Shown here: positions 53,027-60,699 of the stretch, piece after piece
How the letters are laid out: every line of letters begins with the position of its first letter
How positions within the stretch are numbered: the first letter of the stretch is position 1
Assembly (NCBI GenBank): GCA_021792775.1
Contig: JAJYTZ010000001.1
Coordinates: 4,965-68,964, forward strand
Direction: 5' to 3'
From: Candidatus Micrarchaeota archaeon
Lineage (GTDB): Archaea > Micrarchaeota > Micrarchaeia > Micrarchaeales > Micrarchaeaceae
DNA: 64,000 nt
The notes under the pieces: model-generated
Databases searched by the model: none
What the model was told of the DNA's origin: nothing
What the model saw: only the letters and a program-made list of their open reading frames with translations
Translations under genes and position numbers: made by a program

Positions 53027-53084
53027 TGGACTCGGCGGGAATCGCACCCGCGACCTCCCGCTTGCGAAGCGGGCGCGCTCTAGC
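53027..53084 (-). pseudogene. 5'-truncated tRNA-Ala(CGC)-like fragment (D loop to 3' end); att remnant
   Basis: Minus strand: GCTAGAGCGCGCCCGCTTCGCAAGCGGGAGGTCGCGGGTGCGATTCCCGCCGAGTCCA. Anticodon arm CCCGC-TTCGCAA-GCGGG, T arm GCGGG-TGCGATT-CCCGC. No matching 5' acceptor strand upstream. Confidence 0.65.
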
Positions 53085-53139
53085 TGTTTGCCGTCTAGCT
53101 TTTGTTTCCATATAGCCACCGTAGATTTTATTTTCGTTG

Positions 53140-53258
53140 AATGCGAACATCGGTGTTCCGCACACAGATTATAGCGCATTTAGAAATATAAACAGATACG
53201 GTGCGAATACCAGCTATAGCCGCACCCAGTGTTTTCGATTAACCTTTCCAAAAAGGTT
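53140..53258 (+). repeat. Direct repeat copy B
   Basis: See copy A. Followed by two CGCACCCAG motifs and a second hairpin (cttttcgtaaaaag). Confidence 0.8.
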
Positions 53259-53317
53259 GCGCACCCAGACTTTTTAGCAAAGCTTTTCGTAAAAAGGTTT
53301 CGCCGTATTGGTACTCA

Positions 53318-53555
53318 TAAAGTAATTAACCTATAGTGCATCTCTCTTTTTTGACACCATTCCTCAGCAGCTTTGCTCTTTCTTTTCGTTACCTCAGTTA
53401 GATTATTCTTACCTTTTATCTCCACAACTTCCTGTGTTCCATCTTCATACTCAATTAAGAAGTCAGGCGTATAATGTGCTACCTTCTCATCGATGTTTAC
53501 ATAAGGTATTCGGATGCCGTGGTTTTTTGTCCAGCATGTTGCCCTTCTGTATCGT
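53318..53555 (-). pseudogene. C-terminal fragment of a PD-(D/E)xK nuclease-fold protein (TnsA/restriction-endonuclease-like)
   Basis: Hand translation, in a different frame from the adjacent transposase ORF: ...HGIRIPYVNIDEKVAHYTPDFLIEYEDGTQEVVEIKGKNNLTEVTKRKSKAAEEWCQKREMHYRLITL*. It has the D...E-x-K pattern YTPDF...VEIKG. No start codon. Confidence 0.4.
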
Positions 53556-54059
53556 CAGGGCCGTAGGAATCCCGTTGATTCCAGTCGCAATCCCGAAGGT
53601 CACCTGCATTTTGTTGGGGCGGTGGTCCCTGGAGTAACCCAATGCACCAATCTCCGCTTTCTTCCCTTCGAAATAGATTGATGACCAATCGATGTTCTGG
53701 TCCTTGCCCGCAAGGTTCCTCGCGTTGAGGAAGTCCTGGTATCTCTCGATGATGGGAGCCGCGAGGAACCCTACCTTCTCTACCGTCCGATAAAGCGACC
53801 TCTCGGAAACGTTCTCTGCCCCGAGAAGCGCACAGGCATCTTCCGATAGGATTGGGACTATCTGGTGTATCGACGTTGCATACGTCAACCGATTGTTAAG
53901 GAGGATTTTCATCCTGCCGATGTATGCGTGACTCAGAATCCCTACGAAGACTGAGGAGACCAGACCAAAATCCTTTTCTACTTTGTCGATTATAGATATA
54001 CCGCCCAAGGGCGTAGTTGTATTTTTCATGGAAATCAATGAAAATACCGCCCTTGGCAT
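53487..54059 (-). pseudogene. N-terminal third of an IS1634/IS4-type DDE transposase
   Basis: 190 aa. IDWSSIYFEGKKAEIGALGYSRDHRPNKMQVTFGIATGINGIPTALTIQKGNMLD is the IS1634-type signature around the first catalytic Asp. The ORF stops far short of a full transposase. Confidence 0.7.
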
Positions 54060-54094
54060 AAAAATAGGTTGCGTTAGTTTACAAGAGAAGTGGC

Positions 54095-54251
54095 GAGGTT
54101 AAGTTACTAAAGACCTCAACTAAAGAGGTACGCCGTATTATTGATGGTTAGAAGTCCCTCGTGAAAACGGAGTGATCTTTAGCTTGTCGTCGAGAGCTTA
54201 CTAAAGACCTTTTGGGCTTATGGGTCTTTAGTCGCCCGAGGTCTTTAGTTA
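54095..54251. promoter_or_regulatory. Cluster of six copies (both orientations) of a 10-13 bp motif TTACTAAAGACCT at the 3' end of integrase 1
   Basis: Direct copies at 54104-54116, 54119-54129 (variant) and 54198-54210. Inverted copies at 54175-54183 (variant), 54222-54232 and 54239-54251 (overlaps the int stop). Confidence 0.6.
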
Positions 54252-58790: not shown

Positions 58791-58814
58791 ATTGCCAAAA
58801 TAATGGCAATAAGC

Positions 58815-59756
58815 CTACCTATGCTCTCCTAGCCTAGCTTTCAGGCTTACCGCTTGCCCTATCTGGAACGCGCTGTCTATTCCGGCGTATAGGGCTTTGC
58901 GGTTCACATGGATATACCCCATTGTGGTATCGGGCTTTAGGTGCCTTGCGAACTTGCTGGTAAGCAGCACGTTGCCGTTGTTCTGCTCCGAGAATCGGGT
59001 TATCGCATAATGCCTAAGGCTATGCGTGGTAAGCCGATGCAGTCGCCTTACCGCCCGATTCGGCATAGACTCCTCGCTCTGGTCGTAGACTTCGTCCAGC
59101 CTAGCCGCTTCGGCAAACCTTCTGAACTGGTTTCGGACATAGCCCTCGTCCAGATGCGGCTCGCTAGTTCGGCTCTTGCCGTATTCCTTGAAGAACAGGA
59201 ATCCGCTAGCCTTCTCTATCTCCCGCCCGTTGGCCTGAATGTATGCCAAGGTCTCCTGAAAGAGCGGAGCGGGGATTAGCAAGGTATCCAGAGTCATAGC
59301 TTTCTCTGTCTTTACCACTAGCTCCCTGCTCTCGAACCTAATGTCTTTCAGGCTTATCCTTATGGCTTCGCCAATTCGGAGACCCATCTGCGCCTGATAA
59401 GAGAACAACAGGTGGAACTTCGGGCTGTCAATCGCCCTGAAGAACGCACCGACCTCTTGCTCGGTAAAGCCCTTGTTCAGGCTGCCGTATTTGGGAATAC
59501 GGCTACGCTTGAACCGCTTTACGAACTGCGCGGTTACCTGTTTGCGAATATCTACCAGGTAATGTTTAGGAAGGTAAGGTAATGACCTTTCGAGTTCGCC
59601 CTTTATGAGTGCGAACTGGGCTTTGGAACCGCACCCTAAGGCTTTAGAATCTTCGGCTTTCAACCCGTAATCGCACCCAGACCCGCTTACGGATTTGTCG
59701 CCGATATTCTGCTTGTAAAAGATTTTGGACTCTGCGGGATTCGCACCTACGACATT
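58815..59756 (-). CDS. int: Tyrosine integrase 2, open frame without canonical upstream ATG (int(C)-like part); track ORF starts at TTG 59663
   Basis: RIGEAIRI, THSLRHYAIT, ARHLKPDTTMGYI. Hand translation upstream of the TTG stays open to 59756: NVVGANPAESKIFYKQNIGDKSVSGSGCDYGLKAEDSKALGCGSKAQFALIKGE. This is collinear with the integrase 1 N-terminus and again reads through the tRNA-derived sequence. Confidence 0.8.
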   Translation of the reverse strand, partial: NVVGANPAESKIFYKQNIGDKSVSGSGCDYGLKAEDSKALGCGSKAQFALIKGELERSLPYLPKHYLVDIRKQVTAQFVKRFKRSRIPKYGSLNKGFTEQEVGAFFRAIDSPKFHLLFSYQAQMGLRIGEAIRISLKDIRFESRELVVKTEKAMTLDTLLIPAPLFQETLAYIQANGREIEKASGFLFFKEYGKSRTSEPHLDEGYVRNQFRRFAEAARLDEVYDQSEESMPNRAVRRLHRLTTHSLRHYAITRFSEQNNGNVLLTSKFARHLKPDTTMGYIHVNRKALYAGIDSAFQIGQAVSLKARLGEHR

Positions 59757-59787
59757 TCAGTTGCGAACGGGCGCTCTCTCTGAGCCC
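59726..59787 (-). pseudogene. Degenerate tRNA-Ala copy
   Basis: Minus strand: GGGCTCAGAGAGAGCGCCCGTTCGCAACTGAAATGTCGTAGGTGCGAATCCCGCAGAGTCCA. The 22 nt at the 3' end are identical to the intact gene and the 5' GGGCTC is retained, but the D arm is deleted and the anticodon/T stems no longer pair. Confidence 0.6.
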
Positions 59788-59921
59788 TGATTTTTCAGCT
59801 CCGCCTATTCGTTCTCTTACCAACAAGGTCTGGTTTTGTCAGGGCATATCTTTGCGGCGGTTCTCCGACTTTTTCCTTCTCGCACGGCATCACTTGCCAC
59901 TAGACTATCATCGCCAAACGG

Positions 59922-60332
59922 TTAAAGTGAGCCAACCATACTGCGGAGTTCCTTTGTAGTGATAACTTTAACTCTTTTCTGCATGCCGAAATCAGAGTCA
60001 TGGCTCCATATTACAGTATTCTCACGCAATGCACAGGAAATGTATAGCCAATCTTTCGGATCATCAACAAGACTTGCGGCGGCGGGCAGGAATGATTTCA
60101 GATCCTTGTCGGATATGAGGGTAAGCTGGCTAAGCACCTTTCCGGCTAATCTATATAACTCGTCTTCATCCAATCCTGATTTCTTCTCTATTTCTTTAAT
60201 ATGAAATACAAACTCATTTACAATGAATTCCGGGGCGAATAGGAATAGTGCAGGGTTGAAGAAGAGTCTCCTTGTTGTAGAATCTTTTATAAGGCATGCA
60301 AACAGTATGTTGGCATCAACTGTTACTCTCAT
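59922..60332 (-). CDS. PIN-domain protein (toxin-like)
   Basis: 136 aa. MRVTVDANILFACL (Asp), EFIVNEF, DDPKDWLYISCAL and WSHDSDF are PIN acidic residues. Confidence 0.7.
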   Translation of the reverse strand: MRVTVDANILFACLIKDSTTRRLFFNPALFLFAPEFIVNEFVFHIKEIEKKSGLDEDELYRLAGKVLSQLTLISDKDLKSFLPAAASLVDDPKDWLYISCALRENTVIWSHDSDFGMQKRVKVITTKELRSMVGSL

Positions 60333-60558
60333 TCAGGAGCGCCTCTGCGTGTTTTGCTGCACTCTTTGATATTTTTGGGCCGATTAGATTCCAGTCTTTC
60401 CAACTAAACTTGCTCTTTTTAGCTATCCTCTCCGACTCCTCAAAGTCTGCGATCTTCTGCTCTATTATGCTTCTTACCGCGCTTGACCATTTTACAGAAG
60501 AATGCTGTTTCATTTCGCTTTTCAGTTCCTTGCTTATTGAGAGAGTGATGTTGGGCAT
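60316..60558 (-). CDS. Putative cognate antitoxin
   Basis: 80 aa. Overlaps the PIN gene by 17 nt. N-terminal MPNITLSISKELKSEMK is RHH-like. Confidence 0.45.
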   Translation of the reverse strand: MPNITLSISKELKSEMKQHSSVKWSSAVRSIIEQKIADFEESERIAKKSKFSWKDWNLIGPKISKSAAKHAEALLNESNS

Positions 60559-60627
60559 AAAAACACATATTTATTATGTGAACAAACATATTTAATATTT
60601 ACTATCAAGATATCAGAACAGCGTAAG

Positions 60628-60699
60628 TGGACTCTGCGGGATTCGCACCCGCGGCCTCCTCGTTGCGAACGAGGCGCTCTACTACTGAGCCAAGAGCCC
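60628..60699 (-). tRNA. tRNA-Ala (anticodon CGC), no encoded CCA
   Basis: GGGCTCT TG GCTC AGTAGTA GAGC G CCTCG TTCGCAA CGAGG AGGCC GCGGG TGCGAAT CCCGC AGAGTCC A. Has the G3:U70 identity pair. The T loop reads UGCGAAU (G at position 55). Confidence 0.9.

Follow-up and report, generated by a model that had tools for sequence, protein, structure and literature searches.

The four copies of tRNA-Ala(CGC) sequence described here very probably represent the attachment (att) sites of a tandem array of integrative elements, located at a lineage-wide hot spot beside the gene cca in a DPANN archaeon of the Micrarchaeota. The window, i.e. the whole stretch of DNA that was analysed, is 64 kb long and corresponds to contig C16:4965-68964. 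The host genome comprises 784 kb (0.78 Mb) in 31 contigs, with 93% completeness and 45% G+C. On the minus strand, the array runs from the intact tRNA gene through element E1, copy 2, E2, copy 3, E3, copy 4 and E4, and is followed by a helicase gene and the isoleucyl-tRNA synthetase (IleRS) gene. E2 and E3 each contain a tyrosine integrase gene. Comparison of these genes with their homologues supports a self-splitting ("suicidal", SSV-like) integrase architecture in a PF00589 family that is not the SSV family, as far as can be judged from sequence. Relatives were searched among 201 sampled genomes of the order.

The intact tRNA-Ala(CGC) gene (60628-60699, minus strand) forms the proximal att of the array. 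It was identified by ARAGORN (60627-60699) and by the Rfam tRNA model (68.1 bits), and a G3:U70 pair is present. A distance of 116 nt separates it from cca (60815-62224, plus strand), the divergent gene for the archaeal CCA-adding enzyme. The tRNA gene is 100% identical to the tRNA at the equivalent cca-linked site of the relative G002. The 72-nt tRNA was used as a BLAST query against the whole 784-kb genome. Three further copies were found on the same strand, each significant at genome scale (E 6e-10 to 2e-9). Copy 2 (59726-59787, minus strand) is a decayed near-full-length tRNA, and forms the att in front of integrase 2. It shows 83% identity over tRNA positions 9-72 (BLAST match 59726-59786, E 6e-10), and its final 22 nt match the tRNA exactly. 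Copy 3 (55180-55209, minus strand) is an exact 30-nt copy at the junction of E2 and E3, 30/30 identical to tRNA positions 43-72 (E 1e-9). Copy 4 (53027-53084, minus strand) is a diverged 58-nt tRNA-like att, with 84% identity over tRNA positions 19-72 (BLAST match 53027-53082, E 2e-9). It retains the anticodon CGC and has the T loop TGCGATT. Its anticodon stem is CCCGC/GCGGG, compared with CCTCG/CGAGG in the tRNA, and all pairs are preserved. The initial annotation of this DNA had described the intact gene at 60628-60699, four same-strand copies, the identical 22-nt 3' end of copy 2, and the anticodon, compensatory stem changes and T loop of copy 4. It had also proposed a formal alignment of the four copies. 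This alignment was made, and all of these features were recovered, except that copy 3 lies one base away from the 55179-55208 given there. No fifth copy was found in the 64-kb window, including the sequence after the truncated module D3a (see below) and the boundary between the IleRS and the core genes.

The two integrases differ in their completeness. Integrase 1 (54245-55228, minus strand) is an intact open reading frame (ORF) of 327 aa, whereas integrase 2 (58815-59753, minus strand) is a fragment corresponding to the catalytic C-terminal part, Int(C), and its frame is open from within copy 2. No ATG precedes the conserved core of integrase 2, and a TTG is found at 59663. Both proteins match PF00589 and are 70% identical to each other. 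According to the alignment, the catalytic residues of integrase 1 are complete (R141, K166, H259xxR262, H286, and Y295), and H259-S-L-R262 (HxxR) is invariant in the family. Members of this family are present in 104 of the 201 genomes, with up to 11 copies per genome. When 23 members were compared with Pfam PF16795, the SSV-family domain, and with PF00589, all 23 matched PF00589 and none matched PF16795 at E<=1. The sole PDB match of the family profile is XerA (4A8E). Membership of the SSV family was rejected on these grounds: the lack of PF16795, the HxxR signature and the match to XerA indicate that the integrases are not SSV-type by sequence, despite their SSV-like working. An integron was also considered and rejected; the NCBIfam integron-integrase model scored 27.8 bits against a cut-off of 265, and the repeats are tRNA 3' ends rather than attC sites.

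Both integrases start right 3' of a tRNA copy, and their frames read through the att in the same frame (..GANPAES). The start codons were compared at the 29 best integrase loci of the relatives. At 28 of these 29 homologous loci there is an intact tRNA (Ala, Val, Glu, Leu, Lys and others), and the frame begins 36-166 nt ahead of its 3' end. The frame is likewise open into the tRNA at 27 of 80 metagenome loci. Downstream of the tRNA, no start codon keeps a constant position, and the conserved LPxLPKH motif is often reached before the first in-frame ATG. The open frame into the tRNA, together with the lack of a conserved downstream start, thus indicates that the tRNA-adjacent integrase copies are Int(C) fragments.

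The distal ends of the elements carry a module, termed D3, of about 130 nt. D3b (53085-53270, minus strand), at the distal end of E3, contains GGGTGCG motifs, the palindrome AACCTTTTTGGAAAGGTT, a TTTATAT box, a hairpin, and an ATG; the palindrome is invariant in D3. The ATG at 53109-53111 opens a 28-codon frame, METKARRQTARARPLRKREVAGAIPAES, which continues in frame into copy 4. A second distal-end module, D3a (48534-48649, minus strand), is 87% identical to D3b, but the 3' end of the helicase gene truncates it before the ATG and att are reached. Elements of G004, G056, G089, G023, G100, G161, and G094 likewise have D3, a conserved ATG and an open frame into the att at their distal ends; in all, this arrangement is kept, with compensated frames, in at least 8 genomes besides this one. 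Equivalent D3 DNA is read in two different frames among the copies, and each frame is restored at the att, which argues for selection on the open frame. In the metagenome contigs L108 and L136, a promoter-like module, an ATG, a partial tRNA and Int(C) form one contiguous gene. A structured RNA was considered for D3 and rejected; the covariation term was only -0.37 kcal/mol over 18 copies, and the helices are nearly invariant. D3 is therefore read as promoter and arm DNA.

The GGGTGCG motifs are not confined to D3. One pair is found in the 5' coding region of integrase 2 (59627-59678, minus strand), with a counterpart pair at 55057-55108 in integrase 1. The 49-nt stretch around the two motifs is 96% identical between the integrases, compared with 71% for the rest. 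The longer form GGGTGCGRNT was counted 8 times in the window, where 0.56 occurrences are expected; each of the 8 lies on the minus strand and in an att copy, an integrase 5' region, or D3b. The motifs are thus clustered at every att. These motifs might be integrase-binding sites, which repeat the T-arm motif of the att.

The anatomy of the array suggests how such an element probably works. The tyrosine integrase gene would span its own attP. The promoter module D3 and about 19 codons of the N-terminal part, Int(N), would run in frame into an att of 30-58 nt, read as ..AGA(N/I)PAES, and the catalytic Int(C) would come next. By integrating into the tRNA gene's 3' part, the element would restore the tRNA, and place Int(C) at the proximal att without promoter or start codon. 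The promoter and Int(N) would be left at the distal att. The split integrase genes would then decay, so that the cargo would be fixed, integrase-less units would remain, and the locus would grow into a small defence and addiction island. The sequences themselves show the anatomy of the array, its absence from a relative and the horizontal spread of its modules, whereas both the recombination activity of these integrases and an order of insertion along the array are presumed in this mechanism.

A possible consequence of tandem integration can be seen at copy 3. Upstream of this copy are the stop codon of the gene for a phosphoenolpyruvate (PEP)-utilising enzyme, a TATAAG-like stretch, and the ATG at 55228. 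The N-terminus of integrase 1 consists of seven codons, MLTSDGK, of which K is the first att codon; the att-coded KAAGANPAES and the Int(C) of E3 follow. If the seven codons represent the Int(N) of E2, this end of E2 would form, together with Int(C) from E3, a hybrid integrase gene that was rebuilt by tandem integration and may be expressed. Tandem integration with a hybrid integrase was modelled for suicidal integrases by Badel et al. (2020), who reported that it had never been observed (PMC7253208). The chances seem evenly balanced that the Micrarchaeota integrases represent a separate self-splitting lineage, derived from XerA-like PF00589 recombinases independently of SSV, pervasive and array-forming, with 54245-55228 as a live tandem hybrid intermediate.

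Several parts of the array are related to sequences of distant genomes. In G028 and G069, members of the order's other large family, the native tRNA-Ala(CGC) is identical to copy 4 at 52/53 positions. Copy 4 differs from the resident tRNA in the anticodon stem, the variable loop, the T loop, and position 66. The 244-nt module of D3, Int(N) and att is 82-92% identical in at least 20 genomes from both families, whereas the cca protein is just 34-60% identical in those genomes. Similarly, the integrases share 84-90% identity across families: integrase 2 is 90% identical to the integrase of G059 (another family), and integrase 1 is 84-87% identical to those of G109 and G056 (other genera or families). 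The match to a foreign tRNA and the spread of the module indicate that copy 4 is of foreign origin and was carried by an element, in agreement with the earlier proposal that the diverged copy came from a different host.

The pair of cca and tRNA-Ala(CGC) is kept in all five same-genus genomes and beyond, and the sequence downstream differs in each. The closest relative, G002, lacks window positions 43571-59773. One break point of this absence is copy 2. At the other (43570-43604), the window contains no att copy, although the corresponding place in G002 holds a decayed tRNA copy. The order in G002 (L031) is tRNA, Int(C) 5' remnant, ferrochelatase-like gene, radical SAM gene, degenerate att, VapBC, decayed tRNA, and the core gene corresponding to 43570. 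G004 has a unit of 3.9 kb that contains an AAA_14 ATPase gene as well as a D3 module and is bounded by an exact 44-nt repeat. The region after the tRNA in G022 differs again from both G002 and G004. In G100, a "mini" element consisting of two ends only is followed by a VapBC unit, and then by an att remnant with an Int(C) 5' stub. In G040, G030, and G023, two or three D3 modules lie no more than a few kb from cca or from one another. The initial annotation had suggested repeated site-specific integration into one tRNA gene. The integrases lying 3' of the copies, the 28 of 29 homologous loci, the variable downstream sequence and the absence in G002 all support this suggestion, which is the best reading of the locus.

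The units of the array carry different cargo. E1 contains a VapB-like antitoxin (60316-60558) and a PIN_2 toxin (59922-60332), together spanning 59922-60558 on the minus strand (Pfam PIN_2, 2e-21; NCBIfam VapB). It has no integrase. The same VapB/PIN_2 pair is found at the equivalent locus in G002, with 88% DNA identity, and a pair of this type sits between two att remnants in G100. E1 is an old integrase-less module common to this genome and G002, and not a recent insertion. E2 is 4.5 kb long between its putative ends, and its cargo (55253-58575, minus strand) includes a 44-aa ORF (58441-58575), a maturase-like radical SAM/SPASM enzyme (57214-58431), and a PEP-utilising/ATP-grasp enzyme (55253-57178), with a GC content of 33-36%. 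The radical SAM enzyme is closest to peptide-maturase and anaerobic sulfatase-maturase models, but scores below their cut-offs. This cassette is 78.5% DNA-identical in G115, a member of the other family, where it has a different context (locus L200, G115:C20). A search for intact E2 with the PEP-utilising enzyme revealed no att or integrase beside the G115 copy, which indicates that the 44-aa ORF/radical SAM/PEP cassette also moves as cargo alone. E3 is 2.1 kb long, and consists of the Int(C) of integrase 1, an insertion sequence (IS) fragment, and D3b with Int(N). The IS fragment (53487-54059, minus strand; 190 aa) belongs to an IS1634-family transposase (NCBIfam NF033559, 3e-14, profile positions 76-193/483).

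The cargo of E4 (48669-52798, minus strand) is composed of a VapB/VapC pair (52207-52798), a 110-aa ORF, an ATPase, and a DpnII restriction-modification (R-M) system. The ATPase (50532-51809) is of the AAA_14/DUF4143 kind and corresponds to PADLOC type PDC-S01. The R-M system consists of a Dam-like methylase (49527-50396) and a DpnII endonuclease (48669-49517). E4 has no integrase, and its GC content is 33-42%. The composition of the array cargo is foreign, and GC content is strongly different between segments. The intervals had been annotated as holding a PIN/antitoxin pair, integrase 2 with the radical SAM cassette, and integrase 1 with IS fragments, with an R-M island below the last copy, and each of these was found. 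The array does not stop at 53027 but extends to the truncated module at 48534-48649, and perhaps to 43601.

The far variable region (43601-48503) carries a Pif1/RecD-like WYL helicase (46920-48503, plus strand) and the IleRS (43601-46780, minus strand), and is missing from this site in G002, G004, and G022.

Several observations weigh against the reading of this locus as a tandem array of self-splitting elements. The distal end of E2 has no D3, and its putative Int(N) of just seven codons could be due to chance. Owing to this short Int(N) and the missing D3, the function of the hybrid integrase is uncertain, and a functional enzyme is considered possible but somewhat doubtful. In G115, the radical SAM/PEP cassette directly precedes an IS1634-like fragment, so that E2 and E3 may share a history instead of representing two independent arrivals. 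Neither E1 nor E4 has an integrase remnant beside its proximal att, and an autonomous origin is therefore only presumed for these two units. No att copy marks the far boundary at 43601, and the variable region includes an essential gene, that of the IleRS. An empty site, which the initial annotation had proposed to look for, was not found among the compared relatives. No circular contigs, recognised by terminal overlaps, were present among the whole-contig metagenome hits, and a search of IMG/VR with integrase 1 and the family alignment gave no relatives.

A second co-oriented stack is located on contig C7 (C7:8856-13748; L002, L006, L007), behind an intron-containing tRNA-Ala(UGC). It comprises an AbiEii toxin-antitoxin pair, a 42-nt CGC-type tRNA fragment, a ThaI R-M system, a D3 module accompanied by a tRNA fragment, and a TIR-domain protein. 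No integrase was found in the C7 stack.

The integrase-less units (E1, E4, and the C7 stack) may alternatively never have been autonomous, but might be att-bounded cassettes moved in trans, like cis-mobilizable elements (CIMEs). The array would then have grown cassette by cassette rather than by the decay of complete elements. This explanation, which is partly compatible with tandem integration of self-splitting elements, is rated as rather unlikely. A VapBC-a unit is found between att remnants with differing neighbours in G000, G002, and G100, as would be expected of a mobilized cassette. The C7 stack can be described as three one-function units with no trace of an integrase, and the G004 ATPase unit, with its exact 44-nt repeat, also has none. 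However, truncated Int(C) 5' remnants or D3 modules do lie beside such units, namely after the tRNA in G002, in G100, and at C7:10151-10382 (D3), which indicates that deletion of the integrase gene does happen. Moreover, no circular cassette was seen among the metagenome contigs.

Another explanation is that the block from copy 2 to copy 4, or more, first came together in a different host and was then acquired in one event as a composite island, the internal copies being inherited scars. The absence of 43571-59773 from G002 in one piece could be accounted for in this way, as could the cassette adjoining an E3-type IS1634-like fragment in G115. A single foreign source is difficult to reconcile with the copies themselves, since copy 3 matches the resident tRNA at 30/30 positions but the type of copy 4 is foreign. 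The two integrases are also only 70% identical, with their closest relatives in different genomes (G059 versus G109 and G056), and the GC content differs strongly between segments. Arrival as one island is thus considered improbable.

It is less probable still that these are classical integrases (pNOB8-like or lambda-like) that start downstream of the att and stay intact on integration, with the open frames arising by coincidence. Such integrases would suit an ordinary PF00589 family with HxxR whose nearest solved structure is XerA, and a GTG or TTG does occur soon after the tRNA at some loci. This explanation is contradicted by the loci of the relatives: coincidence would have to account for frames open into at least five tRNA types at 28 of 29 loci, and a first in-frame ATG that often lies beyond LPxLPKH. 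It would also have to explain the conserved ATG upstream of the distal att, which stays in frame despite frame-shifting differences between copies, and the contiguous genes of L108 and L136 with their ATG upstream of the partial tRNA. Finally, local duplication and decay of the tRNA gene, unrelated to mobile elements, could produce a copy spanning almost the full tRNA length such as copy 2, but this explanation is contradicted by the partial, 3'-anchored copies 3 and 4 with integrases directly attached, by the foreign match of copy 4 within a module of at least 20 genomes, and by the absence of the region in G002.

The stacking of elements at a tRNA gene is in itself known, textbook behaviour. 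In bacteria, integrase-less att-bounded units accumulate at tRNA att sites, as in the accretion of streptococcal integrative and conjugative elements and CIMEs, and in tRNA-linked genomic and defence islands. The Micrarchaeota array resembles these in its integrase-less att-bounded units beside a tRNA gene, and in a cargo of mostly defence and toxin-antitoxin genes. It differs in being archaeal, in its self-splitting integrase of a different family, and in residing in a genome of only 0.78 Mb.

The SSV-type (type I, "suicidal") archaeal integrases are known from SSV1/SSV2, pTN3, and pT26-2 (PMC8371274; Badel et al. 2020, PMC7253208). The SSV, pTN3 and pT26-2 integrases contain the Pfam domain Phage_integr_3 (PF16795) and the catalytic signature R...KxxR...Y (PMC8371274). 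The Micrarchaeota integrases resemble them in that the attP lies within the integrase ORF, the 3' part of a tRNA gene is the target, and the promoter-bearing Int(N) and the catalytic Int(C) are split apart. In both, an Int(N) can also be joined to an Int(C) from another source. Unlike the SSV type, they belong to PF00589 rather than PF16795, have the signature R..K..HxxR..H..Y rather than R..KxxR..Y, and find their nearest structure in XerA (4A8E). Their Int(N) is very short, with about 19 codons plus the att-coded residues, and they occur in mesophilic or acid-mine Micrarchaeota instead of hyperthermophiles. Within the order studied here, tandem arrays are common, whereas single-site tandem integration was undetected for suicidal integrases according to Badel et al. 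(PMC7253208). In archaea, tandem integration has been described with type II (pNOB8-type) integrases, e.g. in thaumarchaeal elements (Krupovic et al. 2010, 2019, as cited in PMC8371274 and PMC7253208). As far as these citing papers describe them, the type II elements are also unrelated elements arranged head to tail at one tRNA gene with att copies between, but their integrase stays intact; in Micrarchaeota it is split, and the junction can rebuild a hybrid gene.

Self-splitting integrases have been described as having arisen once, in one superfamily, and as being a speciality of hyperthermophiles (PMC8371274). A full-text literature search, of incomplete coverage, found no account of such integrases in Micrarchaeota or other DPANN archaea. 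Three features appear to be new: recombinases outside the SSV family show the self-splitting design, such integrases are frequent in a DPANN order of mesophiles, and one tandem junction carries an intact hybrid gene. If this reading is true, 54245-55228 would be the intermediate that was proposed by Badel et al. (2020) to explain the persistence and target switching of suicidal integrases. The hybrid junction makes this published model of survival and target-switching directly testable. The arrays also provide a visible route by which a symbiont with a 0.78-Mb genome may gain genes for defence, toxin-antitoxin systems and peptide modification, and possibly for an aminoacyl-tRNA synthetase.

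The IleRS gene of the far variable region is the only copy in the genome. Its best matches lie outside the genus, with 62% identity in G197 and G073 and 56% in the other family. It is just 52%, 44%, and 42% identical to the IleRS of the same-genus genomes G002, G004, and G005, respectively, and the gene is differently located in each. These identities suggest that the IleRS may have been laterally replaced or relocated. Aminoacyl-tRNA synthetase genes have been reported in DPANN viruses (PMC12647753). The adjacent Pif1/RecD-like helicase belongs to superfamily 1B (SF1B) and carries its WYL domain at the C-terminus; several candidate defence families of PADLOC are matched by it.

Further genes were noted at related positions. 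In G002, the cargo between the tRNA and VapBC (L031:1769-4136) comprises a ferrochelatase-like ORF of 327 aa and a radical SAM ORF of 480 aa. A TnpB gene (OrfB_IS605/Cas12f-like TNB domain; 63421-63999, minus strand) runs off the end of the window, and a homologue is present near the hot spot of G100. Contigs of G007, G013, G015, G021, G023, G033, and G037 end about 70-410 nt from cca on the tRNA-Ala side, several of them at about 200 nt and hence at the tRNA, which is consistent with assemblies breaking at repeated att or element sequences.

The tRNA-Ala genes of the order (60628-60699 and those in loci L013-L097) have an unusual T loop, UGCGA, in which G replaces the near-universal U55. This loop is always paired with a D loop ending in AGUA, with A at the position of G18. 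All four tRNA-Ala sequences with a normal UUCR loop have GGUA instead, giving a split of 21 versus 4 distinct sequences. The pattern appears to reflect covariation of the 18:55 tertiary pair. Since the T arm is part of the att, spread of this T-loop variant of tRNA-Ala may be aided by the elements.

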